From Bacteroidota bacterium (GTDB lineage: Bacteria > Bacteroidota > Ignavibacteria > Kapaibacteriales > UBA2268), in contig JBDQHL010000001.1 of the NCBI GenBank assembly GCA_040264895.1, positions 79,060 to 143,059 on the forward strand: a stretch of 64,000 nt of DNA, written 5' to 3'. This document shows, in pieces, positions 5,309-22,511 of the stretch. Under the pieces are notes generated by a model, which was given only the letters and a program-made list of their open reading frames with translations, did no database searches and was not told the origin of the DNA. Positions within the stretch are counted from its first letter, which is position 1, and each line of letters starts with the position of its first letter. The position numbers were made by a program, and so were the translations under genes.

Positions 5309-6419
5309 CTCTTTTAAAATTTTTGACAATCATTTCGCCCAGTAGTCCCAATGAGACTAACTGAACACCAACTATTATTAATCCAATACCAAGAAGTGCT
5401 GCTGGTCTGTTACTCAAGAAAGTATCTCCCATCAACCATTCTATTGTTAGCCAAGCGTCTATCCCAAATCCTAACAATCCTAATAAAGTACCTAGTGTAC
5501 CAAAAAAGTGTAGTGGTCTTTTAAGATAACGTGATGTAAACAATAATGTTAATAAATCAAGGAATCCTTTTACATATCTAGAAGCGCCAAATTTGGTAAC
5601 TCCATGTTTTCTATGGTGATGCAAAACAGGTATTTCAGCTATTCTAAAACCATTCCAGTGGGCTAGTACAGGTAAATACCTATGCATTTCGCCATATATA
5701 TCGAGTGACTTTGCAGTTTCAGACCTATAAGCCTTTAGTCCACAATTAAAATCATGTAGCTTTAACCCGCTAGTTTTTGATGTAACGAAGTTAAAGAATT
5801 TAGAAGGTAACGTTTTATTAATTGGGTCATTTCTTTTCTTCTTCCAACCAGAAACCAAATCATAACCTTCTCTAATTTTGGACATTAAGTTAGGTATCTC
5901 ATCTGGATCATCTTGAAGGTCAGCATCCATTGTAATTATAACTGCACCTTTCGCACGCTTGAAACCAACTGACAAAGCAGCTGATTTACCATAATTTCTT
6001 CTAAATCTTATTAGCTTAAACCGTCTATTCTTTTTATTAATCTCTTTGATTACCGAATAAGTGTTATCGTCGGAACCATCATCTATATATATTACTTCGT
6101 AGTTTCCTTTTGCTTCTCTCTTTAGGACGTGTTCCAATCTATTTGAAAGCTCTTCGAGTGAGTCTTGCTCATTGAAAGTTGGAATCACAACTGATATCAG
6201 AGGTCTTTTAGAGTTGTTAGAATAATTCTTTTTCCTCTTGATGCCCTGCTTATTATCTTTACCTTCAGAATTATCTTTTGGCTTATGAGACTTCTTAACA
6301 GGGTTTATTCTGCTATCTCTTTTCTTATAATTCTTAGGTTTATGAGCATCTGTACTCCTTTGCCTTTCTGGCTTAGAGCTCTCTGAATTTTCTATTTGCT
6401 TTTTATCTTTATCAGGCAT
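5277..6419 (-). CDS. glycosyltransferase family 2, polyprenyl-phosphate glycosyltransferase-like (ArnC/GtrB type) with about 70-aa basic N-terminal extension
   Basis: VVIPTFNEQDSL, DDGSDDNT and DADLQDDP motifs plus two C-terminal TM helices. The N-terminus is K/R/S/N-rich low complexity. Confidence 0.85.
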   Translation of the reverse strand: MPDKDKKQIENSESSKPERQRSTDAHKPKNYKKRDSRINPVKKSHKPKDNSEGKDNKQGIKRKKNYSNNSKRPLISVVIPTFNEQDSLEELSNRLEHVLKREAKGNYEVIYIDDGSDDNTYSVIKEINKKNRRFKLIRFRRNYGKSAALSVGFKRAKGAVIITMDADLQDDPDEIPNLMSKIREGYDLVSGWKKKRNDPINKTLPSKFFNFVTSKTSGLKLHDFNCGLKAYRSETAKSLDIYGEMHRYLPVLAHWNGFRIAEIPVLHHHRKHGVTKFGASRYVKGFLDLLTLLFTSRYLKRPLHFFGTLGTLLGLLGFGIDAWLTIEWLMGDTFLSNRPAALLGIGLIIVGVQLVSLGLLGEMIVKNFKRDEEYQIKETL

Positions 6420-6483: not shown

Positions 6484-7242
6484 CTACAATTTAACAATCT
6501 TTAGCTTACCAACCACATTATCATTGTAGTAAATATATGCAAAATATACTCCCCTGCCTAATGAGTTTACATTAAAACTAGAGTTGCTACCTTTCACTTC
6601 TATTTGTTTTGTACCATTTAAGCCATATACAGCTACTCTATCGGCGTTGTTGCCCTCATTATATATAATACCATTAGAATAGTAAAAACCATTATCTTCA
6701 GCGGTATTAGAAACTGATGTCTCAGTTTGTATAAACCTAACACTAATAGTATATGTTTCTATAAAGATATTATCAATTACTAAAGGAACACCATTTACAA
6801 TATTAGAATCAACTAAGGTACCACCTGTAATATTATCAACTACTCTAATTTCCTTTATCCGCTGGTCTAAATCACCAATCGGAACAGTTAATCTAAAGTC
6901 TTTTCCTTGTTCTCTATTTCCAAGAAGTTCAAAAGCATAATCTATAATAGTGTCATTCTGTATTGGTTTTGCCCTTAAGTCAATATCTGTAAAAATTAAT
7001 TCGTCTTCTCTACCTTCATACTCTCTTATAATTCTAAAAGTAGGGATAATCCCCTGTGGTGGGGGAAAAGGTGGCAAATCATTTTCATAATTTTCGTCAT
7101 AAACATTAGTAGTAGAGTCAGAATACCCTGCCTCTAAAAAAGTGCTAACACCATCATAACTTACATTTAGTTTGAATGATGTTTTATCAAGACTAAAAGA
7201 GAAATATGTAGTAAAAATAAATAGTAAAACAACTAATCGCAT
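6484..7242 (-). CDS. T9SS-sorted secreted protein, function unknown
   Basis: Signal peptide MRLVVLLFIFTTYFSFS; the start is moved to this Met because the longer ORF would run into a terminator hairpin. CTD end reads GVYFAYIYYNDNVVGKLKIVKL. Carries an LPPFPPP motif. Confidence 0.75.
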   Translation of the reverse strand: MRLVVLLFIFTTYFSFSLDKTSFKLNVSYDGVSTFLEAGYSDSTTNVYDENYENDLPPFPPPQGIIPTFRIIREYEGREDELIFTDIDLRAKPIQNDTIIDYAFELLGNREQGKDFRLTVPIGDLDQRIKEIRVVDNITGGTLVDSNIVNGVPLVIDNIFIETYTISVRFIQTETSVSNTAEDNGFYYSNGIIYNEGNNADRVAVYGLNGTKQIEVKGSNSSFNVNSLGRGVYFAYIYYNDNVVGKLKIVKL

Positions 7243-7264
7243 AGTGTTCTTCTCCGTATCATTA

Positions 7265-7305
7265 AATAAAAAAAGGGATAGCACAACTTGCGTCTAGCTA
7301 TCCCT
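7265..7305 (-). terminator. intrinsic terminator after the 1066-aa gene
   Basis: 9-bp stem AGGGATAGC/GCTATCCCT (7274-7282 and 7297-7305), followed on the minus strand by a run of 8 T. Confidence 0.7.
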
Positions 7306-7332
7306 AAGAATGTTATAGTTTACAACTACAGA

Positions 7333-10300
7333 TTATTTAACGATTTGTAATCTCATAATCTTGTTGTAAGAACCAGCTTGAACTTTAACAAAGTAGTTAC
7401 CAGAAGAGAAGCCGTTAGCATCAAAGCTAATAGTCTTAACATCTTCGTTTACGTTTCCACTGTAAAGATTAGCTACTTTGTTACCAACTGAGTTGATTAA
7501 AGTAACATTGTAAGCACCTTCTACAGGAGCATTGAAACTAATAGTAGCTTCAGATACAACTGGGTTAGGGTAAACATTGTTTACTTCACTTAATTCTTCA
7601 GTTTCTACTCTATTCAATTGAATTGAGTTAGAAGAAGACTTAATTTCAACTGAAGAGAAATTATCAGAACTGATAGTACCAAAGTACTCGTAAGTAGCTG
7701 CGTCTTTCACTTCAAAAGTACCATTCATTCCTTTAGCAGATATAGAAACTGGATACTCAACGTTAGTCAATTTGATAATTGATTCGTTGTTGTTAGTCAT
7801 CTCAGTATTACCGTCAAACCTTACGTCAAAAGATGGTGGTAGTGGTGGTAATTCAATGCTGTTAATTTCTGTGTTGTTAGTTACATATAATGCTTTAGAA
7901 CTTTGGTTATTGTCAGAAACAATAATTTGAGTTGCATTGTTTTTAACACTATTTCTAGAGTCAAACATTACTGGAACTTCGTTAGTTCTCTTAGCACTTT
8001 CTGTATTAAAGTAGTAGTAACCATCAGTATCAACTTTCAACCAGTAACCTAATCCAGGTTGTAATTCAGATACTTCTTTGTAACCTTCTTTAGTTTCATA
8101 TTTCCAGACACCATGTTGTAGCATGTAGTTTCTGTCAGGTCTGTTACCTTGACCAACTGATCTAAACTCTAATGCTTCAACATTGATAGGAGTTGTAGGA
8201 GCACCAACTGTGTTCCAACCACCTCTTCCTTCGTCAGCAACATAAACTCTTACTGGGTTAACCAATGGGCTAACTTCAAAGATGCTAGTTCCTCTGAATG
8301 TAGTAGGTAAGTTATCTTTATTCGCACCGAATTTTACGAAATAACCAACACCTGGACGAATGTTTCCGTCATCTTCTTGTTGATATGAATTTAAGAAGAA
8401 GTAATAAGGTCTTCTAGTTAGTAGACCTGTTGACTCCCAAGGATTACCATTATCAATTGGTTTTACAGGCATAGATAGTAAATTCCATCCTGGCTCTATA
8501 ATTGGGTTACCCTCAAAATCAGTGTATTCGATTAATTTAGCAGGAGTATATTCTATATAGAATTCTCTTACTCTAGGGTCATTTATATTGAATGTATATA
8601 CATTAGGATCAATACTTGGAGTACCTTCATTCCACAAATCAACTGGATCAAAAGTTTGACCATTGTCTGTATCTCTTAAGAATATTGAAGAACCTTCAAT
8701 AAAGTCTTCTCTGTTCCATGAAATGATAATAGGATATCTTTGATCTTGATTATCTTCACCTGGATTAAATTTAACTTTATAAATTAATGAACGCGTCGTA
8801 TCATCAGAACTTCTAATATCTCTAGAATTTGATTTCAATTGCTCATCACTAGTAGCAAAGTCACCAAGACCAAATTGGATATCAGGATCATCAATTTCTT
8901 CTCCAGATTCATCTACAGGATAGAATCTAGCTTCCATTTCAGTAGAAGAAAGAGCAGATTCTTTAGCGTGCTCACCATATAGTGAATCTACACCAATTGT
9001 AGCTCTGTCACCAGTACCAAATACTATTCTTGAAGACTCTCCATCTCTATTTGTTAATGTCAATGGAATACCATTCAATCTTGAACCAGCTGGATCTTGA
9101 CCTTCTAATGGTGGTCTGAAGTAAATAAATGTTACTTTAATTCTTACTGGAGAAATGATAGCATAATCAGAACTGAATGTTAGATAACCAGTATAAATAC
9201 CAGTTTTCTCAATTTCAGGATCATCATTCAAATCATCACCAGCTTGGATTTTTGCAGGATCACAAGTTATTGTTAAACTTAATGGACCTTCGTCATCTGG
9301 AACTTCATTCTGTTCATCTCTTTGACTGTCTTCACCTAATAAACCATTATCTAAATAAGTTACAAAGCCTTCTGTTGTAGGACCTTGTATATCACGGCCA
9401 TCAAATTCTAACCATGGTTTATCAGATACGATATGGATGTTTTTAAGTAAAGTTAATTCTGTACCATTCAAAACTTCCATAATTCGTGTTGCCACATTTG
9501 GATAAGGGTTTTGATTTCTATTCGCATTCAAATCAACAGTAAAAGGATCTACTATTTCATATAAACCTTCCTCTATTTCTACAATTGGAGGTTGTTGACC
9601 TAATTGTCTGTTAATCTCAAATTCAAAAGATGGTTGATCTGTCATATATTGGAACCAAATACCACCTGGTAAAATTTTGTTCTCAACGATATCATTTTGG
9701 ATAGTTCTATTGTCCATACCAGCAAGACCAGAGAAAGTTACACCAAGTGGTGAATCATAATTAGGTCTTTGTGGATCTGGGAAATCTTCACTAACTCGTG
9801 TATCATAATCTCTGTAGTCAACAAAAGGAGCTTCTTGTAATACATTCAAGTCATTGTAAATAATAGTGTCTCTACCAATATGGAAGAAAGAAAAACTATT
9901 TTCTAACTTCTCGCCTTCATTCAATACAGCTTTAAATCTTACATAAAGTAAAACTCTAAACTGTTGGAAGTCCAACGCTGTATTTGGCAATGGTTTGTTA
10001 CTTGCAGCAGATATTGATACTGCACGGCCTCTATTAACAGTTACCGTTTGAGATGCATCAATATGAGTATAGAAGTTTTTATCTACTTCATCATGCCAGT
10101 CAATTTGGAAGCCAGCAGCCAATGGTTGCTCTCCTCTTAATTTAACAGAACGAGGAATGTATTTAGGATGTACAGTTTCTACACCAATTGGTCTTACTGT
10201 TGCTGAATCATAGAACAATTTAAAGTTGAAACTAGTGATAGGAGCAACAGGTAAATCAACAGAATATCCATCTGGATTATCTGCCCATCTGTTATCAATA

Positions 10301-10533
10301 AAGACAGGAACTAAAAATTCTCTGTCAAAATTCGTGTTTCTAGGTAGCAATACTCTACCATTTTCGAACCACTGGTCGTTATATCCACCTTCTTGTCCAG
10401 TTAAAGATAAAACTGGGATTCGAGGATAATCTTGAGCTTCTACAGAACCGAACCCAATAAGGAATAGCAATGCTGCTACTGCCATACTGGTAAGTCTGTT
10501 TACGCCCTTTACCTTAGTATTTTTATTATACAT
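7333..10533 (-). CDS. large T9SS-sorted surface protein with N-terminal cohesin-like module
   Basis: Signal peptide and a cohesin-like segment (FLVPVFIDN...SFNFKLFYDSATVRPIGVE). CTD reads VYPNPVVSEATISF...GNYFVKVQAGSYNKIMRLQIVK. Confidence 0.8.
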   Translation of the reverse strand: MYNKNTKVKGVNRLTSMAVAALLFLIGFGSVEAQDYPRIPVLSLTGQEGGYNDQWFENGRVLLPRNTNFDREFLVPVFIDNRWADNPDGYSVDLPVAPITSFNFKLFYDSATVRPIGVETVHPKYIPRSVKLRGEQPLAAGFQIDWHDEVDKNFYTHIDASQTVTVNRGRAVSISAASNKPLPNTALDFQQFRVLLYVRFKAVLNEGEKLENSFSFFHIGRDTIIYNDLNVLQEAPFVDYRDYDTRVSEDFPDPQRPNYDSPLGVTFSGLAGMDNRTIQNDIVENKILPGGIWFQYMTDQPSFEFEINRQLGQQPPIVEIEEGLYEIVDPFTVDLNANRNQNPYPNVATRIMEVLNGTELTLLKNIHIVSDKPWLEFDGRDIQGPTTEGFVTYLDNGLLGEDSQRDEQNEVPDDEGPLSLTITCDPAKIQAGDDLNDDPEIEKTGIYTGYLTFSSDYAIISPVRIKVTFIYFRPPLEGQDPAGSRLNGIPLTLTNRDGESSRIVFGTGDRATIGVDSLYGEHAKESALSSTEMEARFYPVDESGEEIDDPDIQFGLGDFATSDEQLKSNSRDIRSSDDTTRSLIYKVKFNPGEDNQDQRYPIIISWNREDFIEGSSIFLRDTDNGQTFDPVDLWNEGTPSIDPNVYTFNINDPRVREFYIEYTPAKLIEYTDFEGNPIIEPGWNLLSMPVKPIDNGNPWESTGLLTRRPYYFFLNSYQQEDDGNIRPGVGYFVKFGANKDNLPTTFRGTSIFEVSPLVNPVRVYVADEGRGGWNTVGAPTTPINVEALEFRSVGQGNRPDRNYMLQHGVWKYETKEGYKEVSELQPGLGYWLKVDTDGYYYFNTESAKRTNEVPVMFDSRNSVKNNATQIIVSDNNQSSKALYVTNNTEINSIELPPLPPSFDVRFDGNTEMTNNNESIIKLTNVEYPVSISAKGMNGTFEVKDAATYEYFGTISSDNFSSVEIKSSSNSIQLNRVETEELSEVNNVYPNPVVSEATISFNAPVEGAYNVTLINSVGNKVANLYSGNVNEDVKTISFDANGFSSGNYFVKVQAGSYNKIMRLQIVK

Positions 10534-10563
10534 TAGGACACCTTAAAAATTATTTATAAAAAA

Positions 10564-11727
10564 TTAATTATTTATTTTCTTGTATATTTTAGTAAAGTTA
10601 CTTGTTGTAACCTTAATAAAGTATATGCCTTTCTTTAATCTATTCGAGTCATATACGTTATTAACATTACAATACTTTTCATCTACCTTATTTCCAAGAA
10701 CACTATATACCTGAACATTTATTCCATTTACTTTAGGAATAATCAGACCATTCACGTTTTCAAATTCTGTGAAGTAATTAACACTTGACTTAACAGAGTC
10801 TTTGGACTGCCTATTAGTAAAGTTAAATTCCAAATTTGGAAACCTTGTTGCACATACGCATTCAGTAGTTTCAACCGTCTCTATATTCAAATTTACATCA
10901 GCAGTATCATACTTACTAGATATTATGTTTAACATGATATTAGTCTCATCTGAATCTAATATACTCATATCAACCAAATAACCATTGTCATCTTCTATTG
11001 TTACATCGTCAATTATTATAGAGTTGTTACCAACTATATCATTAATTGAAATACTATCCGTATCTAGAGTTAGTCGTACTTTCCAATATTCTAAAGAACT
11101 TAGTTCTCCTAAGTCTAACTCAATATTTAGACTTGTCGAACTATCTTGTTTGAGAACTATTTCAGTGTCCTCAATATCAAAACCAATACTTCTGCTTGGC
11201 TTATCAACTATTCTTCCTGCAATTTCTAATGAAGTATCTGCATCTACAGAACCTTTGAAATCATCAAAAGGAAAAAAGTAATTGATCCCAAATACAACTG
11301 TATCATTGCAATCTCCTATAAAATCTCCAGCAAAACCTACAAGTGGTAAGCTACCAGAAAGTGGGTTAGGAAATCCTTTCAAATCAACAGCACCTTCAAA
11401 TATTATTTCACCGTTATCACCATCTGCATTTGATTTTTTATATTTAAACCTATCTGCAAAAGTGTTTATAGTAAGTACTCTATTCATTCTTACTACTTCT
11501 GGATCATAACTCAAAGAGAGCTCAAAACCTATAAGAGAATCTGATTTAATAACAGTTCCTATAGTTGGAGCTACTATTACCTCTCTCTCAAATTCTTTAC
11601 CGCAAAGATCAACTGGATTCAAATCCAAAATTTCAAGCTTGTAATCTTTAGATTTAGCTTGGGAGCTGCTCATTAATATGAGCAACCCCAAAGCAAAAAT
11701 CGTATTTACAAACTTAGAGTCAATCAT
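10564..11727 (-). CDS. T9SS-sorted protein with N-terminal cohesin-like module
   Basis: Signal peptide. LIGFELSLSYDPEVVRMNRV...GEIIFEGA follows cohesin logic. CTD reads GIYFIKVTTSNFTKIYKKINN. TAATG overlap with the upstream gene. Confidence 0.7.
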   Translation of the reverse strand: MIDSKFVNTIFALGLLILMSSSQAKSKDYKLEILDLNPVDLCGKEFEREVIVAPTIGTVIKSDSLIGFELSLSYDPEVVRMNRVLTINTFADRFKYKKSNADGDNGEIIFEGAVDLKGFPNPLSGSLPLVGFAGDFIGDCNDTVVFGINYFFPFDDFKGSVDADTSLEIAGRIVDKPSRSIGFDIEDTEIVLKQDSSTSLNIELDLGELSSLEYWKVRLTLDTDSISINDIVGNNSIIIDDVTIEDDNGYLVDMSILDSDETNIMLNIISSKYDTADVNLNIETVETTECVCATRFPNLEFNFTNRQSKDSVKSSVNYFTEFENVNGLIIPKVNGINVQVYSVLGNKVDEKYCNVNNVYDSNRLKKGIYFIKVTTSNFTKIYKKINN

Positions 11728-13589
11728 TATCTATTGATAATAATCTTTTCTATTTCATTCACGCCTTTACCTTCTAACTTGATAAAGTAAACACCTGAAT
11801 TAAGTTCGTTGCCATAAACATCATTTAATTCTAATACATTAGTAGCACTAGAATTGATATTACCACTATAGATTTCAGAAACCTTGTTACCAACTGCATC
11901 AAATACAGAAAGTGTATAGTTTCCTTCTTGTGGTACGTTCACTGAGTAAGTAGACATTCCATTAACAAATGGGTTAGGAGTTACTACTAGATTAGCAGAA
12001 GAAACTTCGCTAGCTTCAGTAATAGTACCAACTGGTTTGTCATTCACTCTGATGTTATTTAAAGTCAAATTACCATTAAGATCCGTCAATTCTACATAGA
12101 ATACAGCTTCTTTAGAATCAAATTCTTTAGCAGAAGCAGCAAAGAATACAGAATTAGTACCGTGATCTGTCATTTGGAATTCATTATTTAATTCAGTTCT
12201 TACACCATTAACAGAAGCGTTAACATCAAAAGAAATTGAAAGTGGTCCGTAATGATTGTTGTTTATGTAAACAGGAACAACAGTTTTACCATTAAGTACT
12301 TCTTTATCACCTACTACAATGTTGTCAGCAACATTAGCTTGTTTAGGATCGAATACTACTTCGTCAGGTATTAACCATGGAAGTTGAGTAGTAGAAGCAG
12401 ATAGATATTGCAAAATAATTGCAGCATCGTGCTCATTTACTTGATAGAATACTTTCTTCAATGAAGTAACTTCATTTGGAATGTTATCAAAGTAATTTTC
12501 ATCTTGACTTCTTATTTCTACTTTCTCATCATTACCACCATTAGTTCTGTAGTAATATCTACCATTGTGATTTACATCACCGTGGTAAGCAGCTCTTCTT
12601 CTTACACTATCCAATGGAATTTGAGTAGCCATAGAACGAAGAATTAATCTTACGTCATTGAAAGTAACATATCTGTTTTGTGGTAGGTTGAAGTGTCTTT
12701 GACCAGGAGTCTTAGAAAAATCAACATCTCCATCACCCCAAGATTCTTCAATGTTAAGAGTCTTCTTAGCAGTGAATAATATTCTGTAATTAGAAGCACC
12801 AGATGGTTGCCATGCATTTGATAAATTAGTACTGTCAGTAGCAGCAGAAGAAACACCTGAAGTGCCATCTGGCTCATCACTGATAGGGAATAATCCATTC
12901 ATAAAGTCGTCAAACTCACCTTTGATTCCAACTGAAGCACCTCTTGTTACTACAATTGTTTCGTTAGTTAATGTATTACCACCAACTTGACCATAAGCGA
13001 ATTCAATATCACCTTGTGGAGTTGCAGGATCATCTGATCTGTAAAGAATTACTTGGAAATCTGCGATACTTGATGGCTTAGTCTTGTCCATAATGTTCAA
13101 GTCTTTCCATTCAATTACCATCATGTCAGCATCTCCTTTGTAAGAAATTGTTGTCTCAACGTAATTGTTTAACTCATCAACCTTATTTCTAAAAATGTGA
13201 TCACCCCAGAAAGGAGCCAATACATTTTGTTGGTAAGTAGATGGTAAATCTCTAAACAAACCTCTAGGATTTGTTTGTGGCAAAAAGTTTGGTCTGTCGA
13301 ATGTAACAAATCCATTCACACTGATCCAAAGTTCTGTATATACCTCTCCATTGTACTCAAAAGGGAAACCGATATCAATTTTATGATATCCATCATCCGA
13401 ATCTTGAACATTTGGAGGTAAGATAAAATCAACGTCTTCCAACTCGGTACCACCAACGATAGGTGTGTAATCCTTATCAACAAGTTCCATTGACATAAAT
13501 TCACCAGGTACATTCGACTTTAGCGCTAAGCTAGAAAGAGCAACTAGTGCTACTGTCATTCCAGCTATTATGCTTTTTGTAAGTCTCAT
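11727..13589 (-). CDS. T9SS-sorted protein with NIDO-like, dockerin-like and cohesin-like modules
   Basis: IDIGFPFEYNGEVYTELWISVNGFVTF, VLAPFWGD and FQVILYRSDD are NIDO-like. GDGDVDFS and GDVNHNG, each followed by an amphipathic helix, are dockerin-like. CTD reads VTPNPFVNG...GVYFIKLEGKGVNEIEKIIINR. Confidence 0.7.
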   Translation of the reverse strand: MRLTKSIIAGMTVALVALSSLALKSNVPGEFMSMELVDKDYTPIVGGTELEDVDFILPPNVQDSDDGYHKIDIGFPFEYNGEVYTELWISVNGFVTFDRPNFLPQTNPRGLFRDLPSTYQQNVLAPFWGDHIFRNKVDELNNYVETTISYKGDADMMVIEWKDLNIMDKTKPSSIADFQVILYRSDDPATPQGDIEFAYGQVGGNTLTNETIVVTRGASVGIKGEFDDFMNGLFPISDEPDGTSGVSSAATDSTNLSNAWQPSGASNYRILFTAKKTLNIEESWGDGDVDFSKTPGQRHFNLPQNRYVTFNDVRLILRSMATQIPLDSVRRRAAYHGDVNHNGRYYYRTNGGNDEKVEIRSQDENYFDNIPNEVTSLKKVFYQVNEHDAAIILQYLSASTTQLPWLIPDEVVFDPKQANVADNIVVGDKEVLNGKTVVPVYINNNHYGPLSISFDVNASVNGVRTELNNEFQMTDHGTNSVFFAASAKEFDSKEAVFYVELTDLNGNLTLNNIRVNDKPVGTITEASEVSSANLVVTPNPFVNGMSTYSVNVPQEGNYTLSVFDAVGNKVSEIYSGNINSSATNVLELNDVYGNELNSGVYFIKLEGKGVNEIEKIIINR

Positions 13590-13676
13590 TATAAAACCTC
13601 TTATATATTATTAATTATTGTCATTGTTATAAATGGAAGTACCCTACCTAAGTAAGGTACCCCAAGTTTAGTCGTC

Positions 13677-16600
13677 TTATTTAACTATCTGTACTTTCAT
13701 GAATTCAGTTACACCACCAGCATTCATTCTTAGAGTATAAGAACCGTTGCTTAAGTCATTCGCAAATCTTTCTTTGATATCAAAGTCGAATGCGTGAGGA
13801 CCTACAGTGTAGTTACCTTCGTTAAGTACGCCGATTACTCTACCAACGTTGTCAATTAGTTCGAATGTTACGTAAGCAGCTTTGTTAAGGTTAAAGTTAA
13901 CAGTACTTACAGTTGTAACTGGATTAGGAGACACATTAGTAATGTTAGAAACAGCAGCTACTTCATTGTTCTCTACACTAGATTGAATATCTCTGTAGAT
14001 AATGAATGCGCTTATTTCACTATTAGTAATAGTCAATTTAGCTTCACCAGTTGCATCGTCATATTCGAAGCTGTTACCTGACAAATATCTTACATTAGGA
14101 TCGTGCATATTGATGTGGAAGATTGAACCATCAGAAGCAGGGTCTCTTAAGTACCAGCTTGAACTAGAAGGGTTCGCAGTTGCATCATCAATAGCAGGAA
14201 CGTCATTTGCATTCCACTCAATAGTAATTGGGTAGTTAATTGCAGTTTGACCATTCTCACCACCAACTTGTATTTGAGCTACATATATTTGGTCTCCAGT
14301 AGCAGAAGCTTCTGGATAAATATTTCTCAAGATACCGTTAATTGTTGGTACAGTCCATCTTGCGTCAAATATATCTTGTTGTGGATAAGGAGGTAATTCA
14401 TACTCACAATAGTTAGGGTCTACCTTACCTTCTTTATCACCATCTCTACCATCACCAGTTGAAACGTTAGTTTCAGCAGTACCAAACTCTAGCACTTGGA
14501 AAGAACCAATTGAGTTACTTACTGTTATAGGAGCAGCAAAGAATGTTGGATCTGAACGTTTGAATCTAAATCTGTAGATAGTAATTTCACCTTCAGCATC
14601 AGTAGCTCTAATTTCAACAGTAATTCTACCGTCTGCATCAGGAGTTACATTTTCAATTGCTTGAGTTACGATTACATCAACTCTTACAGAGTCATTATCA
14701 ATGTCTTCACCTTTAAGTTCATATTGATCTAATTCTACACCTTGTACAGGTTGAGTAACTTCTAGAGTAACTAATTCTTGTGGAGTTACATCTGCATCTC
14801 TCAAGAAGTCTTTGTCTATTACATAGATAAAGTAGTCATTATCTAAGTTACTATTAGGATCTACACAGTCTACGTTTGGAGCAACTGCGATGTCTGGACC
14901 TTGATTGCTAGCTTCAACTCTTAGGTCGAATTCCATCAATGCAGGTAAGCCATCTTCATCAGTTACTAGTACAATTACTTTCTCATCTTTAAGAGCGTCT
15001 TCTACTTCAGGAGTACCATATAGTAAACCACTTTCAGGGTTGATTTTCAACCATTCTGGAGTGAATTGACCATTAGTACCGTAATCAACACCTTCTTCCC
15101 AAACACCAGCTTCAGTATAACATGGATCTTTAGGAATATCACCTCTACCATCATAAATTAATTCAAATTCATGCTCTTGGAAGAAGTTAGGGTCGAATAC
15201 TTTGATTGCTTTAGAAGAATCAAGTAATTGGTTGTTATAATCAATACCTTCTACAGCATTTGGTAAAGTAGTAGTTAAGATTTCAGGAGCAAAGTTGATT
15301 AGAACTTCTAATCTTCTTTCCATTCTTCCACCATGACCATCATTTACTACAAATACGAAAGATGTATCAGTGTTATATTCACCATTGTTTCTGTTTAACG
15401 GAGTCAATATGCTTACTGCATCAGCTCTGTCGATACGTATGTTCAATTTACCGAATGTAGTAAAGTCTGCACCTAATAGATCTTGTGTAGTCTCACCATC
15501 ATATCTGTATAGATATTGGTCAGCCATCCAAAATGGTCTTTCTTGATCGATAATTTGATCAACATTACCATCTTCTCCATTAATTGAAACAGTGTCAATT
15601 ACTACTGTATCACCAGCAGAGATAGTTTTGTTTACAAAACCATAAGCAGTTCTACCATATCTGAAGTCCCAGCCGTGCTCTTGCTCAGCATAGAAATCTT
15701 CAATTTCGTCATCAGTATTTATGTCAATTTGAAATCTTAACTTATCAGTTACGTTTGCTATTAATCTTGGCTCATCTTCATTAGTTTCACCACAAGTCAA
15801 CACAGTTGGCTCGTAAATAGCAACAGTATCTAGGATAGTAACACCATCAGATTCGTAACGATATTTCTCAACAACACCAGTACCTGGCTCTATGTACTCA
15901 GGGATCTCGTCAACTACGAAGATTTTGAATTCGTAATCAGCTTTCCATCCGTTAGCACCACCAAAGTCGATAGTATCTTGTTGTAAGTATCTTGCCCTGT
16001 CTACATCATAAGAACCAGCATTGTAGTAAGGACCAAAAGTCTCTACATACTTCTCTAATTGCTCATCGCTGAATAAACCAGAGTTTACTAATGAATCTAA
16101 TGTTCTGTAATGTGGAGGATAGTTTGCAGCAGTAACATCTACTGTTTCACCACCAGGAACTACATAAGGGTTAACAGGACAACCTTTTAATACAATGTGA
16201 CCAGTAGCAGCGTCTTTCACTGAATTGTTGTCGCTTACATATAACGTATCTGCTTGTAACCAATTAGCTAAACCAGAATTGTTATCTACATCCCAAGAGT
16301 AAGTTAAGTAAGTATAATTTTCCCCATCAGCTAGTGCTCTAGGATCGTAGAAGTTGTTTGAATCAACTGCAGTAATCGAAAGAATACTGTCTCTACCTTC
16401 GTTAAAGTTACCAGGATATTCTCTATCTTCTCTTAAGAAAATAGTATTAGCGAAATCATCATAGTATAATGTATCTAAAATATCATTAGCTCTCTTAACA
16501 GGATCCAATGAAGGAACCAATTTAACTAATGTATCATTTTGTAATTCAACTATATCGCCAGTGAATACTGGAGGATAAGTGCTTCTTTCGATTTTGAAAG

Positions 16601-19600
16601 AAATACCATCTTCGTAAGCTTCTACAACACCTTCTTTCCATAGTACTTGTCTAGAGATAACTCTAATAACATCACCAGTATCTACAGGAAGTGCATCATA
16701 TCTTTCACCAGCGAAGTAAGTTACAATACCACTACCATTATCAATGTTAGTATTTTGGTCAATTGAAGGTCTGTTACTGAATAAATCATTAACACCACCT
16801 AATTGACGGTAGTCAGCTTCATACTTTCTACCAGGTAAAGTAGCACCTACTTCATTATAACCATTATCTTCTAATTCAGATAATAAGCTATAACCAACAC
16901 CGAAGTTAAATAAACCTTCGTTAGTTCTTCTTAACAATGTGTTAGGAGTTCTGTTAGATGAATCTGGAACAAACTCAACTCTTGATCTAAATACTTCTCT
17001 ATAAGGAGCAACTTCAGAAACTTGCTCTAAATTAACTCTTATAAAGTCAGTTGTAGTTTCATTTATTACAAAGAATACTGTTTGATTCATAGTTTCGGGT
17101 ATGTGGTTGCTTCTTTCAGCAAGACCATCATAATCTACATGAGTCTCTAAGTAAAGTGGGTAACCAATTGGGTGATAGAAATCACCTTCTGGGTTAGCTT
17201 TGAACTCAGATTGTAATGCAGTAATGTAAGGGAATTTCAAGTCGCCATTGTCGTCTAGTAAACCTACACAATATGGATCTCTAGTAGTTCTCTTAACATA
17301 TTTACCAAATGAAGGTTGTGAATCATCAGTAAATCTCTTAGTATTATAAGGAATACCTACTGCAAAGTCCTCGATAGGGCTCATGATTCTCTTAGAGTAA
17401 TCAGCAGTTTTGATATCAGTTCCTTTGTCATATAAGTCATAAACTTTACCAGACATTAATAGTTGCTCATTCAAGCTAGTTGCAGCAGGAGTATTTTCAT
17501 CACCAGCAGCATTTTTTAATAATATCGGAGTATAAGTGTATTCGTCAAATATAGATTCGAATGGACCTTGCTCCAATGGATCAGCTGAACCTCTTACGAA
17601 TGGTAATGGAGATGATCCGTCACCGTCGATAAAGAATGTTTCGTTATCAGCTAATGGGTAACCTAAGTCATTAATAACTTCAACTGTTACATTAGCTTCA
17701 GTTTGACCCCAGTAGTTACCATTCATTGGGTTAGTTCCACCCAATCCAAGACCAATGCTACCAGCTAAAACACCTTTAGTATTCGGTGCATCAGGTAATC
17801 TAACAATAAATCTTGCATTGTTACCATATACAGAGTTACCAGATTCTGGACCTACTCCTACTGGTAATGGACCTTGTAGTTCACCATAAATAACAGCACT
17901 TGCTAAATCAGAAGAAGCTTCGTTCTCAATAATACCACCGTTACCATCTTGAACCATTGGGCCATGGATAGCATTTTGTTCAACACCAATATCCGTTAAC
18001 GCAGTGTTTGCAGATATTAATGATTTTTGGAATATTAATTTTAAGTCATAGTTATCAGAGTAGATAGCAGCACCAGTGTAAGCAGTGTTATTTAACATTC
18101 TTACTCTGTTGAATGATACTGTATCGATTCTGTCTAATACTCTTATGTTAGCACTATCTAAGATGTACATTGCACCACCAAGACCAATACCATTTTCTGG
18201 TAATGAAGTTCCTGGGTGCATTCTAGCTACATCATAGTGACCAGCGTCAGAAGGATTAACTTCGTTCCAAGTAGCACCACCGTCTTCAGTTTTCAACAAT
18301 GTACCATAGTCACCTACAGCAAAACCAGTTGAATTAGAAGCAAAGTGAATACCTTGAAGACCGAATCTTGTTAAATCTTCCATCTTGGTCCAAGTAGCAC
18401 CACCATCTTCAGTCATTAACATGTCACCGTTAACAGTAGTTACAAAACCTTTCATAGCTGAGATAAATTCTATATCAGTTAAGTTAGCTCTTGTATCAAC
18501 ATCAACAGTAAACCATGAATCACCACCGTCAGTAGTAGATAACATAGTACCACTGTTACCAATGATGAAACCTTTGTTCTCACTAGTAAAGAGGATTTTT
18601 TGTAAATCATAGTTAGGGATTGGAGGCACAACTTCTTCCCAAACACCATTTTTAGTTCTTAAGATTAATCTATCATCGCCAACAACATAACCAGTGTTTA
18701 AGCTAGCAAAATATACACCATTCAGATCTTGCATCTGTGGTTGCACAGAAGTCCAAGTATCACCAGCATCGTGTGATTCGTAAATCAAACCATTGTTAGT
18801 TACTGCATATAGATCATTTTGACCTATAGAATAGAAATCATTAAATTGATTGTTAGTTCCAGTATTTAAATCAAACCATGTATTACCAGCATCAGTTGAT
18901 TTCTTCATAATACCTTGTGCACCAACGATGTAACCAGTACTAGAGTCAACAAACTCAACGTCAGTTAATCTATGGTTAGTGTTAGACTCTGGGTATTCCC
19001 ATTTTTCACCACCTTGAGTGAACTTAACAATAGTACCAAACAAACCAACTGCATATCCTACAGACGCGCTAGTGTGGTAGTTTGATAATAATGGGCTTCT
19101 AGTTCTAAATACACCATCAGCGAACTGAGTTGCACCAGAACCTTGCTCATCAGAAGCTCTTTCTTCATACATTGCTTCGTTATTTTTGAATGTAGTTAAC
19201 ATTCTAGCATCAGGAGGGAATGATACATTTTCATCATATGTAAAGATATCATCTCTTGAGCTCATGTTTGTAGCTACATCATTTGCGTCATAAGTAATTT
19301 CGTCTGCATCAGAAACAAAGTATCTCTTATTTAGGTTATAAGGTCCTACCATTGAAACAGCACCACCGTTACCATTGTAAACCATGTTACCGTCAAATTC
19401 AACACCTTTAACTAAGTTTAAGTCACCACCGTTAGAGTAAACTGCACCACCACCTCTTAATTGGCTTAAGTTTTTATCAGCAACGTTAGCACCAACTGTG
19501 TTGTCTCTGAATAATGCTCTTGATAATTGTACTGCTCTTTGGTAATAAGGAGGATTATCAGCTATAGGAATTTGGAAGTGAACAGCACCACCAGCATAGC

Positions 19601-21683
19601 CAGCAGAGTTACCTTCAAATCTTACAGGATATTTACCACCATAACCGATAAGCTCTTGGCTATTAATACCACCAGCACCAGTTATACTACCTTGTCTCTT
19701 AGAGAAGATTGCACCACCCCAAGAAATAGCAGAGTTATTGTTAAACTGAATGTCAAAACCATAATCTCTAGTTTCTAAAAAATCATCAGAACCACCAATT
19801 ATAGTAGTCAAAATTGGGTTAGTATTACCATCTACGTAAATTGCACCACCAGCACCCGAAGTATTACTTTCGAATCTAGTTGGGTTACTTACGTCTTCTC
19901 TAGCAGGACCACCTTTAACAAATAGTCTATTTAAAGAGTTCTCAACGAAAATAGCACCACCCATAGAGTAAAGACCTGCAACAGAACCAACAACTTCATC
20001 AGTTAAGTATTCTGCGCCAGTCATGTTTGACTCAAAGTGACCTGCTACTTGTAGTGAAGTATATCTACCAGCGTAGATAGCACCACCACGAGCACCAAAT
20101 GAACTACCATTAGATTGGTAGTTATTAGCTTCGTTACCTTCAGCTATAAATGAATCTAACTCATCAAAGAATACCTCTTGACCATCAACCATAATACTAT
20201 TGTTGATACCAAAACCGATATCCATTTTATTACTTTCCATTGTTTCTTCACCAGAAACATAGATAGCACCACCATAAGCGTGGTTACCATAAGTTTGAGG
20301 ATACATAGCTGGCTCGTTTAACAAATCAGATACGATTCTTACTGGTGGAGTACCAACAGTAGTTTGACCATAATTTGCTAATTGAACTACGTTATCTTCA
20401 AAATGTAAATTTCTCATTCTACCTAAATAAACAGCAAGACGACCATCGTCGTGTCCCATTCTTTCGTAATCAGAAAGTTCAGAACCAGTGCTTCCGCTAC
20501 CAGGAGAGTCAATTCTATCTATTGCTAAGATAGGATTTTGCTCTACAACAGTAGAAGGAGTACCATCTCTGTCTGTAATGTTAGGGTTTTTGTCTGCTGG
20601 GTAATAACCAACTGTATTAGCTAAGTCATTAACGCTAATTGTTTTTGGCAATTCTCTAGGTGCTTGTAATATTTGTAATGCACCACCTTTGAATCTTGAT
20701 CTGTTGCCCATAAAGTCAACATCTAATAACCAAGTTCTAGATGAGAAAGTTGTAATTGCACCACCACTACCGTTAGTCAACATATTTAATTTGTTGTTAA
20801 CAGCAGCCCAGTCAGCATTATTGTTGTTTTCAAAGTAAAGAGGATCGCTATCTACAGTAGTATCTTTCTTGAAGTTTTCAAATGATACATTTCTGAAGAA
20901 TGCTGCTCTAGCACCAGGAAGTACTATTACGTGTCCCCATTCTACTGATACATTGTTTATTGGTTGACCAATAAATCTAATTTTTTCTTGAACTACATCA
21001 ACAGAGTTTCCACCAATTCTTCTCCAAGATCTAACATTCAGATTTACATCATTGTTAGGGTCTTGGTTTAATCTAGCTGCAACGTAAACAATTGCTTCTT
21101 CAAAAGATACAATCTCTAAGTCTGGATCAGCATCAACGATCGCTGCATCCATAGCATCTAAATCAATGATTCTTCTGTTTGCCTTATCTAATACAACATT
21201 AAATATGTAGTTGTACTTATCAGGGTGAACAGTTTTATCTCTATCTGTAGTAACATCTAATGTTCTTACTATAGTAGTATCTGTTGGCATATTATCGCCA
21301 TCAAAATTGAAATAATCAAAATCCGCATAGCCAGTCCAGCTAAAAGGATTCTGAGAAGTTCCTGCTATACCTAATGGGTCAATACCATGAGGGTTTGCAG
21401 TATATATTGCTTCAGCAAAACCATCTGCGATAATTCTACCACCTGTTGAATCTATTAACCTTCCGTTAGGATGGAAATAGACTTCTGTTCCCGGCTCAAT
21501 GATTAGCGTCCCGCCAACCACATATTCTCTTTCGACTAAATATGTGGAGTCCTTGACAAAGACTCTAACATCACCTGGAGCTATCCTTCCGGATATTTTT
21601 ACTTGGGTCTGCGCAAATCCTGAACTTGATGACAGGATAAATGCGAAGGCCATGAGTACGCAAAGACGAATTAATCGTTGCAT
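13677..21683 (-). CDS. giant (about 2670 aa) T9SS-sorted adhesin-like protein: Pmp-type beta-helix, BNR/Ycf48-like propeller, He_PIG-like Ig domain and CTD
   Basis: Signal peptide MQRLIRLCVLMAFAFILSSSSGFAQ. More than 9 GGA(I/V) repeats and six Asp-box motifs (such as TDGGDSWF, TEDGGATW, HDAGDTW). Also LPNAVEGIDY...PEWLKINPESGLLYGTP. CTD reads VSPNPV...GSYTLRMNAGGVTEFMKVQIVK. The ORF maximum extends to 21701. Confidence 0.85.
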   Translation of the reverse strand: MQRLIRLCVLMAFAFILSSSSGFAQTQVKISGRIAPGDVRVFVKDSTYLVEREYVVGGTLIIEPGTEVYFHPNGRLIDSTGGRIIADGFAEAIYTANPHGIDPLGIAGTSQNPFSWTGYADFDYFNFDGDNMPTDTTIVRTLDVTTDRDKTVHPDKYNYIFNVVLDKANRRIIDLDAMDAAIVDADPDLEIVSFEEAIVYVAARLNQDPNNDVNLNVRSWRRIGGNSVDVVQEKIRFIGQPINNVSVEWGHVIVLPGARAAFFRNVSFENFKKDTTVDSDPLYFENNNNADWAAVNNKLNMLTNGSGGAITTFSSRTWLLDVDFMGNRSRFKGGALQILQAPRELPKTISVNDLANTVGYYPADKNPNITDRDGTPSTVVEQNPILAIDRIDSPGSGSTGSELSDYERMGHDDGRLAVYLGRMRNLHFEDNVVQLANYGQTTVGTPPVRIVSDLLNEPAMYPQTYGNHAYGGAIYVSGEETMESNKMDIGFGINNSIMVDGQEVFFDELDSFIAEGNEANNYQSNGSSFGARGGAIYAGRYTSLQVAGHFESNMTGAEYLTDEVVGSVAGLYSMGGAIFVENSLNRLFVKGGPAREDVSNPTRFESNTSGAGGAIYVDGNTNPILTTIIGGSDDFLETRDYGFDIQFNNNSAISWGGAIFSKRQGSITGAGGINSQELIGYGGKYPVRFEGNSAGYAGGAVHFQIPIADNPPYYQRAVQLSRALFRDNTVGANVADKNLSQLRGGGAVYSNGGDLNLVKGVEFDGNMVYNGNGGAVSMVGPYNLNKRYFVSDADEITYDANDVATNMSSRDDIFTYDENVSFPPDARMLTTFKNNEAMYEERASDEQGSGATQFADGVFRTRSPLLSNYHTSASVGYAVGLFGTIVKFTQGGEKWEYPESNTNHRLTDVEFVDSSTGYIVGAQGIMKKSTDAGNTWFDLNTGTNNQFNDFYSIGQNDLYAVTNNGLIYESHDAGDTWTSVQPQMQDLNGVYFASLNTGYVVGDDRLILRTKNGVWEEVVPPIPNYDLQKILFTSENKGFIIGNSGTMLSTTDGGDSWFTVDVDTRANLTDIEFISAMKGFVTTVNGDMLMTEDGGATWTKMEDLTRFGLQGIHFASNSTGFAVGDYGTLLKTEDGGATWNEVNPSDAGHYDVARMHPGTSLPENGIGLGGAMYILDSANIRVLDRIDTVSFNRVRMLNNTAYTGAAIYSDNYDLKLIFQKSLISANTALTDIGVEQNAIHGPMVQDGNGGIIENEASSDLASAVIYGELQGPLPVGVGPESGNSVYGNNARFIVRLPDAPNTKGVLAGSIGLGLGGTNPMNGNYWGQTEANVTVEVINDLGYPLADNETFFIDGDGSSPLPFVRGSADPLEQGPFESIFDEYTYTPILLKNAAGDENTPAATSLNEQLLMSGKVYDLYDKGTDIKTADYSKRIMSPIEDFAVGIPYNTKRFTDDSQPSFGKYVKRTTRDPYCVGLLDDNGDLKFPYITALQSEFKANPEGDFYHPIGYPLYLETHVDYDGLAERSNHIPETMNQTVFFVINETTTDFIRVNLEQVSEVAPYREVFRSRVEFVPDSSNRTPNTLLRRTNEGLFNFGVGYSLLSELEDNGYNEVGATLPGRKYEADYRQLGGVNDLFSNRPSIDQNTNIDNGSGIVTYFAGERYDALPVDTGDVIRVISRQVLWKEGVVEAYEDGISFKIERSTYPPVFTGDIVELQNDTLVKLVPSLDPVKRANDILDTLYYDDFANTIFLREDREYPGNFNEGRDSILSITAVDSNNFYDPRALADGENYTYLTYSWDVDNNSGLANWLQADTLYVSDNNSVKDAATGHIVLKGCPVNPYVVPGGETVDVTAANYPPHYRTLDSLVNSGLFSDEQLEKYVETFGPYYNAGSYDVDRARYLQQDTIDFGGANGWKADYEFKIFVVDEIPEYIEPGTGVVEKYRYESDGVTILDTVAIYEPTVLTCGETNEDEPRLIANVTDKLRFQIDINTDDEIEDFYAEQEHGWDFRYGRTAYGFVNKTISAGDTVVIDTVSINGEDGNVDQIIDQERPFWMADQYLYRYDGETTQDLLGADFTTFGKLNIRIDRADAVSILTPLNRNNGEYNTDTSFVFVVNDGHGGRMERRLEVLINFAPEILTTTLPNAVEGIDYNNQLLDSSKAIKVFDPNFFQEHEFELIYDGRGDIPKDPCYTEAGVWEEGVDYGTNGQFTPEWLKINPESGLLYGTPEVEDALKDEKVIVLVTDEDGLPALMEFDLRVEASNQGPDIAVAPNVDCVDPNSNLDNDYFIYVIDKDFLRDADVTPQELVTLEVTQPVQGVELDQYELKGEDIDNDSVRVDVIVTQAIENVTPDADGRITVEIRATDAEGEITIYRFRFKRSDPTFFAAPITVSNSIGSFQVLEFGTAETNVSTGDGRDGDKEGKVDPNYCEYELPPYPQQDIFDARWTVPTINGILRNIYPEASATGDQIYVAQIQVGGENGQTAINYPITIEWNANDVPAIDDATANPSSSSWYLRDPASDGSIFHINMHDPNVRYLSGNSFEYDDATGEAKLTITNSEISAFIIYRDIQSSVENNEVAAVSNITNVSPNPVTTVSTVNFNLNKAAYVTFELIDNVGRVIGVLNEGNYTVGPHAFDFDIKERFANDLSNGSYTLRMNAGGVTEFMKVQIVK

Positions 21684-21779
21684 AATACCTCCAATAAACA
21701 AATTATTATTAAAAAATTAACTTTTAGTTTCATTATTATTATGTTTTTTTATCACTAAATGCTCTTTATCAATAGTGTT

Positions 21780-22511
21780 TTAATCAATTTTTGTGCCAAG
21801 ACTCGCCAATTTCGCTTTTGATTGCTTAGCGAATTCCGAACTCTCTGCTATATCTACAATTGACTCATATATTTTTTTTGCTTCATCTTTATTGCCAGCT
21901 TCTTCTCTATTCAATGCAGAGTAGTAAAGATATTTTGCTTTCAATGTCGGTTCTTCCAAATTTTCTGCAGCATTTTTATAGTTATCAGCAGCTGTAGAAT
22001 AATCATTATTATTTTCTGCTACTAAAGCAAGTCCTGCATAAGCGCCTGATTTAACTAGGCTTGCATCGCTGGCTGTAGCCATTTCAAAGAATCTTTTAGC
22101 ATCATCATACTGACCACCGTCGGCATGTGCATTACCTGCGTAAAGAGCAGCAAGCTTACCTTCAGCTACATCGTCATATTTTTCTGCAATACTTGCCAAA
22201 CCAGTTACTTCCGAACCGTCTGCACCAACACCACCGTCTAAAGCAACGCTATAATTACCAGCATCGTACTCTGTAAGTACTTTACTTAAAGCAACTGCAG
22301 CCTCTCTCTCTGCTTTTTCAGCTTGATTTGATGAGTAGTAATAATACCCTACTGCAGCCAATACAACTACTAAGAATATACCTAATACAGTTCCATTTTT
22401 CTTTAACTTTTCTGCTGTATCATCATCTACAAGATCTTCCGTTAACTTTCTTCCGACTTGTAGTTCTTCTTGCTCTTCTGCGTCTGACATTCTTAATTCC
22501 TTATTTGTCAA
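21780..22511 (-). CDS. membrane-anchored TPR protein (YfgM-like)
   Basis: Acidic N-terminus, a single TM (VLGIFLVVVLAAVGYYYY), then TPR-like Ala/Tyr-rich repeats. Confidence 0.6.
   Translation of the reverse strand: MTNKELRMSDAEEQEELQVGRKLTEDLVDDDTAEKLKKNGTVLGIFLVVVLAAVGYYYYSSNQAEKAEREAAVALSKVLTEYDAGNYSVALDGGVGADGSEVTGLASIAEKYDDVAEGKLAALYAGNAHADGGQYDDAKRFFEMATASDASLVKSGAYAGLALVAENNNDYSTAADNYKNAAENLEEPTLKAKYLYYSALNREEAGNKDEAKKIYESIVDIAESSEFAKQSKAKLASLGTKID

Follow-up and report, generated by a model that had tools for sequence, protein, structure and literature searches.

The DNA analysed here, a stretch of 64,000 nucleotides (nt) that we call the window and whose numbering is used throughout, comes from a Bacteroidota bacterium of the Kapaibacteriales (GenBank assembly GCA_040264895.1, contig JBDQHL010000001.1, positions 79,060 to 143,059). 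Its minus strand carries, between 6484 and 21701, five consecutive open reading frames (ORFs), here named genes A to E in the order in which they are read (Table 1). A first-pass annotation, made from the letters of the sequence, had proposed that these genes encode cargo of the type IX secretion system (T9SS) forming a self-assembling, non-enzymatic surface complex. All five ORFs proved to be real genes, and in existing annotations their products are named only 'T9SS type A sorting domain-containing protein' or 'hypothetical'.

A conserved block of five T9SS cargo genes

The five genes are closely packed, with 87 nt between A and B, a 1-nt overlap of the B stop and the C start, 30 nt between C and D, and about 90 nt between D and E, the first three values being those already given in the first-pass annotation. 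Across the related loci described below the median distance between B and C is -1 nt, with 69/73 loci at 10 nt or less; between C and D it is 18 nt, with 30 of 67 loci at 10 nt or less. The shortness of both gaps is consistent with translational coupling. The family alignment shows no variation at M7, R9 or R12, and the true start of A is therefore most likely M7, the ATG at 21683. The start of E was placed at the ATG at 7242 because an extension to the GTG at 7284 would cross a hairpin. All five proteins are acidic, with isoelectric points (pI) of 4.3–4.5.

Table 1 Positions of the five-gene block, its parts and its neighbours in the window (aa, amino acids; CTD, C-terminal domain; TPR, tetratricopeptide repeat)
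Feature	Position	Strand	Description
GT9 heptosyltransferase-like glycosyltransferase	3432..4514	-	syntenic in most loci; resembles lipopolysaccharide heptosyltransferases
Small outer-membrane beta-barrel	4520..5308	-	~250 aa; signal peptide, C-terminal ...QYRY
GT2 polyprenyl-phosphate glycosyltransferase (ArnC/PgfS/AglJ-like)	5277..6419	-	after E in most loci; no terminator-like site between
Gene E	6484..7242	-	252 aa T9SS cargo; signal peptide, module X copy 3, CTD
Intercistronic hairpin and T-run after D	7264..7305	-	9-bp stem AGGGATAGC/GCTATCCCT, 14-nt loop, T7
Gene D	7333..10533	-	1066 aa T9SS cargo; all-beta, ~nine beta-sandwich domains
Module X copy 2 (D ~485-668)	8530..9081	-	hhalign to E passenger and A
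Gene C	10564..11727	-	387 aa T9SS cargo; start overlaps B stop by 1 nt
Gene B	11727..13589	-	620 aa T9SS cargo; NIDO-like N-domain, Asp-rich conserved stretch, beta-sandwich, CTD
'Dockerin-like pair' (B 275-420)	12330..12767	-	WGDGDVDFSK...VTxNDxRxI and HGDVNHNGRYY...NEYDAAxIL
Gene A	13677..21701	-	2674 aa, ~294 kDa, pI 4.3, T9SS cargo
A CTD, T9SS type A	13680..13949	-	hhalign 99.6% to B/D CTDs; single-sequence model below cutoff
Module X copy 1 (A ~2380-2585)	13947..14564	-	directly before CTD; motif CEYELPPYP..FDARW
Conserved orphan region (A ~1160-2150)	15252..18224	-	no known domain; peak block 1401-1450 (YDKGTDIKTADYSNRRMSPIEDFAVGIP)
Seven-bladed Ycf48/BNR-type propeller (A ~870-1160)	18222..19094	-	PF14870 107 bits; PDB Ycf48 E 3e-30
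Pmp-type (GGAI / FxxN) repeats (A ~290-860)	19122..20834	-	PF02415, TIGR01376
Membrane-anchored YfgM-like TPR protein	21780..22511	-	~240 aa; directly upstream of A in all sufficiently long loci
18-bp perfect hairpin and T-run	22597..22635	-	terminator scan; ends upstream E1-dehydrogenase gene

Signal peptides, claimed earlier for all five proteins, were borne out when the sequences and the family alignments were read directly: each N-terminus has a basic n-region, a hydrophobic core and a small-residue cleavage motif, such as SQA/K in C, VEA/QD in D, and FAQ/TQ or FA/QTQ in A. The predicted signal-peptidase sites would leave an N-terminal glutamine on A (FA/QTQ), D (VEA/QDY) and most B orthologues (KA/QVYG), a pattern that agrees with what has reportedly been published as the 'Bacteroidetes Q-rule'.

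Type-A CTDs on all five proteins were likewise supported by TIGR04183, by profile alignments and by matches to solved structures. B, C and D score 31.1, 31.4 and 30.4 bits against TIGR04183 (cutoff 23), and E and A, as single sequences, fall below the cutoff at 22.8 and 15.5 bits. The model matched all 20 of the E orthologues scanned, and the last 90 residues of A align with the B and D CTD profiles at 99.6% hhalign probability. The family profiles of E and C also matched 8glk_D (E-values 9e-11 and 8e-07), a CTD solved in complex with the T9SS translocon, as well as the solved CTD 8glj_D. The literal motif given earlier for this domain stood in part: G.Y(F) is present in all five proteins of this genome, PNP is present in A, B and D and missing from C and E, and the C-terminal ends differ (IVK, INR, INN, IVK and VKL from A to E). 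Taken together these predictions support the assignment of A–E to Sec-exported T9SS type-A cargo. We also considered membership of known T9SS machinery (PorU, PorZ, PorW) and rejected this, the similarity being confined to the level of the CTD or the TPR.

Co-location of the orthologues in related genomes, on which the first-pass annotation had staked its proposal, was found throughout. A scan with one genome per species returned 157 relatives of B, the best 80 of which were taken as loci (L007–L086); the B homologues are a full-length family of about 615–710 aa, found in metagenome-assembled genomes (MAGs) labelled Kapabacteria, Ignavibacteria or Chlorobiota. As judged by tblastn and ORF tables, every sufficiently long locus (L004–L086, about 80 species-level genomes) has the same order and near-equal lengths, with a TPR gene, then A, B, C and D, and then an ORF of about 250 aa. 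In three distant loci, at about 40% identity, the gene order is the same and the sizes are nearly equal (TPR ~240, A 2394–2688, B ~620, C ~385, D ~1060 and E ~260 aa), and E is followed by a GT2, an unknown protein of about 240 aa and a GT9. The complete 2.66-Mb Kapabacteria genome Ch6 (L023; PMC7509429) retains the locus. It is present in the complete genomes CP058732, OY761611 and OY762428, and L021 is the locus of Candidatus Thermonerobacter.

Synteny breaks only upstream of the TPR gene and downstream of E. The unbroken unit is the TPR gene plus A–E, because the upstream neighbour of the TPR gene varies (E1 dehydrogenase or TatC, depending on the locus) and the trio of GT2, barrel and GT9 genes after E is not universal, being absent from that position in L029, L031, L075, L079, L080 and L086. 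The deepest identities to the window proteins are 43–50% for A, 36–45% for B, 30–40% for D, 20–30% for C and about 20–25% for E, and those of the neighbours are 60–70% for the adjacent E1 dehydrogenase and about 60% for the GT2. No published description of the locus was found in the searchable literature on Kapabacteria/Ignavibacteria T9SS, on T9SS cohesin–dockerin systems or on the class Eximiradiia.

Many of the MAG records with the locus are titled 'uncultured Hyphomicrobiales', 'Desulfobulbaceae', 'Chloroflexota', 'Bradyrhizobiaceae' or 'Chloroherpeton' (L016, L018, L020, L024, L025, L030, L031, L033, L038, L053, L077 and others). Given the conserved block and its flanking genes these titles are evidently wrong, through mislabelling or mis-binning.

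Domains, shared modules and the search for enzymes

Protein A is built of several successive parts. Its Pmp-type repeats exceed the cutoffs of both models (47.6 bits against 20.6 for PF02415, 32.7 against 15 for TIGR01376) and include ten GGA[ILVF] motifs; this part is presumably a parallel beta-helix. These repeats are confirmed, and so is the propeller that follows (PF14870, 107 bits). It resembles Ycf48 at the level of the domain, the equivalog model NF010237 giving 110.6 bits against a cutoff of 326, and its match to a BNR-type 'F510_1955 family glycosylhydrolase' model (48.5 bits, cutoff 175) is below threshold and is the sole match to anything named as an enzyme. The propeller is an optional insert of A: the segment has 291–307 residues in most orthologues and exactly 4 in L004 and L078, and a size class of A of about 2330–2400 aa probably corresponds to its absence. 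The orthologues in L069 and L085 carry about 350 additional residues at 2150–2380. Elsewhere A is well conserved over its full length, and segment lengths are constant to within a few residues.

Downstream of the propeller lies the orphan region of A. Conservation in A peaks at residues 51–100, 251–350, 1201–1350, 1401–1450 (0.73) and 1501–1600, and the orphan region contains dense clusters of invariant Asp, Glu, Lys, Arg and His, for example at 1421–1446. No Pfam match to it was found in the window sequence or in 20 orthologues, and no PDB match. An exhaustive phmmer search of 1.84 billion representatives returned 81 matches, all of them orthologues or their fragments and none a relative from outside the family, and a word-indexed search with the central region of A returned orthologue fragments only, with no functional lead. 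Near residue 2200 there is a weak He_PIG/dystroglycan-type immunoglobulin (Ig) domain, followed by module X and the CTD.

Module X is a module of about 150 aa, with the motif ELPPxPP..FD.R(F/W), that is common to A, D and E and bears out the earlier claim of shared cryptic modules. In profile–profile alignments with hhalign, D 489–660 matched E 23–165 (probability 98.1%, E 7.6e-14), and A 2404–2577 matched D 506–666 (98.7%, E 1.9e-16) and the E passenger (96.8%); D 868–980 may be a partial fourth copy. Module X had no significant match in Pfam, NCBIfam or PDB. D is an all-beta chain in the AlphaFold2 model (mean pLDDT, the per-residue confidence score, 79), with about nine sandwich domains whose Foldseek matches are hydin-like Ig chains, the archaeal S-layer protein 7ptp, alpha-2-macroglobulins, antigen I/II and the cohesin–FN3 chain 2w1n. 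Apart from the CTD, no Pfam family recurred among 22 relatives of D.

B begins with a domain that carries the NIDO-like motif NGFxxF...APFWxD; NIDO itself (PF06119) remained below threshold, at 15.2 bits against 25 (E 0.023), in 2 of 17 members. In the model of B (pLDDT 65) this domain (residues 30–220) is moderately confident, a beta-sandwich at 422–525 is followed by the CTD, and Foldseek returned only tandem Ig and CTD-type matches. Conservation of B peaks at 0.74 in the Asp-rich stretch 301–350 and is lowest in the beta-sandwich before the CTD. C has four invariant cysteines and an N-domain with the cohesin-like motif DSLxGFxxxIxYD, and no domain beyond the CTD was recognised in it.

Three cohesin-like modules and one dockerin-like pair had been proposed as the basis of assembly, and this part of the first-pass annotation was not confirmed. 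By eye B has DxDxD and DxNxNG loops, each separated by 13–45 inserted residues from a V-x-x-x-D-x-x-x-I-L helix, and no other part of B is as well conserved as the stretch that holds them. Dockerin (PF00404) gave no match at E<=10 among 17 family members, Pfam showed no EF-hand either, a profile of 35 sequences of the stretch gave no match of any kind in PDB at E<=10, and the stretch is modelled at a pLDDT below 50. The cohesin signals are marginal in C (PF00963 E 0.18 in 2 of 19 members; a ScaB cohesin at E 0.18) and in D, whose N-domain, modelled with nine strands, matches PDB cohesin 4dh2_A at E 0.035 and 0.098 over a motif of 35–50 residues and whose Foldseek match to 2w1n has an E-value of 2e-4 at rank 32. 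The C and D N-domain profiles matched each other with a probability of 20% only. In the putative cohesin of B, residues 422–525, no cohesin signal was obtained in Pfam, PDB profile or Foldseek searches, and conservation in B is lowest in this sandwich.

No hydrolase, protease or lyase family was significant in A–E in searches of Pfam, NCBIfam and PDB profiles, together with AlphaFold models and Foldseek for B and D, in line with the earlier statement that the passengers lack a catalytic signature. A positive control in the window, a 953-aa S8 subtilase at 31671–34532 on the minus strand (Peptidase_S8 E 8e-49, Por_Secre_tail 21.4 bits), was readily detected. This is a separate predicted T9SS cargo with a type-A CTD and shows, as judged from its domains, that the genome also sends ordinary enzymes through the T9SS.

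An internal hairpin and the genes around the block

The hairpin between D and E has its stem arms at 7305–7297 and 7282–7274 and a T-run that extends to 7264, about 20 nt before the ribosome-binding site (RBS) and ATG of E. No terminator-like site was found in the window after the TPR gene, A, B, C or E, confirming the earlier observation that within the block a hairpin with a T-run occurs solely after the fourth gene. Across loci, terminator-like sites are present between D and E in 60 of 66, compared with 5/67 between the TPR gene and A, 11/71 between A and B, 8/79 between B and C, 11/73 between C and D, 1/63 after E, and 7 of 355 random windows inside A. The stem varies between loci (GGGCAAC/GTTGCCC, GGGCAGC/GCTGCCC, GGGTAAC/GTTACCC, GGGATAG/CTATCCC), and these paired, compensatory changes indicate that the structure, and not the sequence alone, is maintained.

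At most loci the RBS and ATG of E lie 15–30 nt past the T-run, a spacing that leaves no room for a promoter of E. We infer that E, together with the GT2, barrel and GT9 genes, would be expressed by read-through past the hairpin, which itself would be an attenuator or the protective 3' end of a TPR-A-B-C-D message. Rfam contains no known RNA family matching it. At the other end, a perfect hairpin with a T-run (22635–22597) lies between the E1-dehydrogenase and TPR genes and forms the 5' boundary of the unit. A consensus promoter scan performed no better than on shuffled sequence, the consensus being uninformative for this phylum.

The protein encoded upstream of A has a transmembrane segment visible at about residues 44–60, followed by a periplasmic TPR-like domain; it scores 25.0 bits against PF09976 TPR_21 (cutoff 25.5) and shows weak similarity to the TPRs of PorW/SprE. 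Downstream of E, the small barrel matches generic models in some orthologues (OMP_b-brl in 5 of 19, OMP_b-brl_2 in 3 of 19). From their predicted families, a role of the GT2, barrel and GT9 proteins in the synthesis of a lipopolysaccharide-type anchor or in cargo glycosylation is plausible. Residues 1–72 of the GT2 form a Lys/Arg-rich, low-complexity N-terminal extension of about 70 residues, which more distant orthologues (~335–360 aa) lack; close relatives (L007–L015, 380–428 aa) are of similar length to the window protein.

Several other features of the window were recorded. On the strand opposite to the GT9 gene, and a few kb downstream of it, an ECF-type sigma-70 gene (1193–1762, plus strand) abuts an ORF of 432 aa (1762–3060, plus strand) whose ATG begins on the last base of the sigma stop codon; it has no Pfam or NCBIfam match and is possibly the cognate anti-sigma factor. 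A cobalamin riboswitch (RF00174, 73 bits; 60826–61025, plus strand) precedes a 779-aa ORF (61188–63527, plus strand) with no Pfam family at E<=0.01, next to a divergent TonB-dependent receptor gene (58765–60744, minus strand), and the riboswitch-controlled ORF may encode an unrecognised B12 uptake protein. A same-strand run of ORFs at 34596–39043 on the plus strand includes a BatD-family protein (36459–38300, PF13584 E 2e-46) and is probably a Bat (Bacteroides aerotolerance)-type operon.

A candidate surface assembly and its alternatives

The occurrence of the same block, in the same order, in about 80 genomes suggests that A–E are probably one undescribed assembly and not a random set of adhesins. 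Our favoured reading, to which we give a probability of roughly 0.5, is that the five proteins join as subunits into a single acidic and non-enzymatic structure on the cell surface, one that is characteristic of Kapabacteria-type Bacteroidota; that they form a complex is what synteny, translational coupling and the shared modules would together point to. For A, an identity of 43–50% over 2.7 thousand residues with fixed segment lengths fits better, as far as sequence comparison goes, with a structure making many fixed contacts than with a fast-evolving adhesin. The chain of sandwich domains in D, with its likeness to S-layer and adhesin chains, also speaks for this reading. Of the structural, non-degradative interpretation put forward by the first-pass annotation, the type-A cargo, the lack of enzymes, the co-location, the shared modules and the hairpin were upheld, and docking by cohesin and dockerin was not.

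In the mechanism that we propose, each cargo would cross the inner membrane by Sec, possibly helped by the YfgM-like TPR protein, and then, by analogy with Porphyromonas and Flavobacterium, the outer membrane via the T9SS translocon; from known T9SS biology the PorU sortase would cut off the CTD and join the protein to anionic lipopolysaccharide. A would act as the scaffold, with its Pmp-type helix, optional Ycf48-type propeller, family-specific core of 900 aa, Ig domains and module X. The amounts of B, C and D would be coupled, given the near-universal overlap of the B stop with the C start and the short C–D gap. The hairpin after D would lower the expression of E, GT2, barrel and GT9 and in this way set the subunit stoichiometry, E being a minor module-X subunit whose dose the hairpin determines. 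Candidate contact surfaces are module X, which lies before the CTD in A, in the middle of D and over the whole passenger of E, and the invariant Asp-rich stretch of B, which resembles a calcium site. A further possibility is that the glycosyltransferases and the barrel encoded downstream provide or alter the glycolipid anchor, or that they glycosylate the subunits.

Several observations weigh against this favoured reading. A gene order fixed within one bacterial class can be explained in part by slow genome rearrangement. The assembly principle that was first suggested, cohesin–dockerin pairing, which would offer a concrete way of docking, was not supported, the dockerin failing the Pfam and PDB tests and the cohesins being marginal. 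Residues 225–421 of B, which include its candidate contact stretch, are modelled with low confidence, and no fold could be assigned to some 900 aa of A or to the NIDO-like domain of B, for both of which an enzymatic or ligand-binding role is therefore possible. In the metatranscriptome of Candidatus Thermonerobacter (PMC6338057, Table S1), the surroundings of three annotated heptosyltransferases were compared with the locus and none corresponded to it.

We think it unlikely that A–E are co-regulated, independent surface proteins, adhesins or binders, anchored separately and kept together by a promoter and by lineage history, even though each has its own signal peptide and CTD and could be exported and anchored alone, no interaction domain was confirmed in Pfam or PDB searches, and Pmp repeats, Ig chains and NIDO-like domains belong to the usual repertoire of adhesins. 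Among independent adhesins, copy number, length and repeat content are as a rule variable, whereas here one-to-one co-occurrence, fixed order, overlapping genes and near-constant lengths at about 40% identity form an unusual combination, and the identity of A at depth is high for an exposed adhesin when set beside the 60–70% of the E1 dehydrogenase. Quite unlikely in our view is a cryptic role of A, perhaps also of B, as a surface enzyme or an enzyme-like binder acting on an extracellular polymer, with B–E as accessory or substrate-binding proteins, which would make the locus a functional or degradative one and not a purely structural one. Active sites of polysaccharide lyases or hydrolases are often found on parallel beta-helices, conservation of A is highest within the orphan region (1200–1600) with its invariant charged clusters, this conserved part of about 900 aa lacks a known fold, and the propeller has the sub-threshold glycosylhydrolase match mentioned above. 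However, no catalytic family emerged from Pfam or NCBIfam, with single sequences or 20 orthologues, or from PDB profiles, nothing related to the orphan region was found beyond the family, and the propeller cannot be the core function because some orthologues show a clean deletion of it.

A motility or attachment apparatus like the SprB/RemA gliding adhesins, with A as a mobile surface filament, is highly improbable. A is a giant, repeat-rich T9SS protein encoded together with smaller accessory proteins, as SprB is in the sprC-sprD-sprB-sprF operon of Flavobacterium johnsoniae, and the family profile of E weakly matches the pre-CTD region and CTD of RemA (E 0.067). Unlike SprB, which has a type B CTD, the proteins of the block have type A CTDs; no PorP/SprF-like partner was recognised among the neighbouring genes, where the small barrel matches generic outer-membrane models only, and no search revealed sequence similarity of A to SprB or RemA. 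The host lineage is moreover described as flagellated: Kapabacteria genome papers report flagellar genes and chemotaxis and make no mention of gliding (PMC7509429, PMC6338057).

Other known systems resemble the assembly that we favour in certain respects. TfsA and TfsB of Tannerella forsythia are T9SS-exported, co-transcribed, glycosylated proteins of an S-layer lattice, and the block shares with them adjacent, large, non-enzymatic, beta-sandwich-rich CTD proteins that presumably belong to one surface structure, glycosyltransferase genes nearby, and, among the best fold matches of D, an S-layer chain (7ptp). It differs in having five proteins instead of two, one of them a 294-kDa giant with Pmp repeats and a propeller, and no sequence similarity was found in any search; the likeness is one of fold class. 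The GGA(I/L/V) and FxxN repeats of A, which pass the Pfam and TIGRFAM thresholds, recall the chlamydial Pmps and suggest an adhesin-like beta-helical passenger. Those proteins, however, are type V autotransporters with a C-terminal beta-barrel, whereas A ends in a T9SS CTD, yields no autotransporter domain in Pfam or NCBIfam, and carries more than 1700 aa of unrelated domains. Residues ~870–1160 of A align over the full length of Ycf48/HCF136 structures, but in A this is an optional extracellular insert of a giant surface protein in a non-phototroph. As for cellulosomes and non-cellulosomal cohesin/dockerin-like modules, C and D have the motif G(F/I)xFxLxYD, with cohesins as best or near-best weak matches, and B has two Asp/Asn-rich loops, each with a distant V(T/N)xxDxxxI(L) helix; here, in contrast, no match is significant, the putative calcium loops are split from their helices, and there are no enzymes to dock.

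A more far-reaching version of the favoured reading, which we put forward tentatively and with the odds against it, is that the block encodes a hitherto unrecognised, class-wide extracellular organelle of Kapabacteria, such as a fibril, a spike or an unusual coat, put together outside the cell from five T9SS cargos with new interaction modules (module X and the split, calcium-site-like docking stretch of B), a stoichiometry set by the attenuator, and perhaps a glycolipid anchor of its own for which the GT2, barrel and GT9 proteins would be responsible. Work on T9SS cargo has mostly dealt with individual enzymes, adhesins or S-layer proteins of cultured Bacteroidia, and T9SS-exported surface proteins and S-layers are already known as a kind. 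The novelty here lies in finding together a fixed five-cargo block, a 900-aa core restricted to the family, a private shared module and a conserved, attenuator-like internal hairpin.

The set of five cargos, a chaperone-like gene and an RNA hairpin has been retained by about 80 species-level genomes, among them the streamlined Ch6, in a class with hardly any cultured members, and the locus is a possible clean marker for contigs of the Kapabacteria type, which often bear wrong labels in public records. If the five proteins do form one structure, it would be a defining feature of the envelope of this lineage and a natural case of extracellular multi-subunit assembly through the T9SS, and it would supply new protein modules in the form of module X and the 900-aa core of A.

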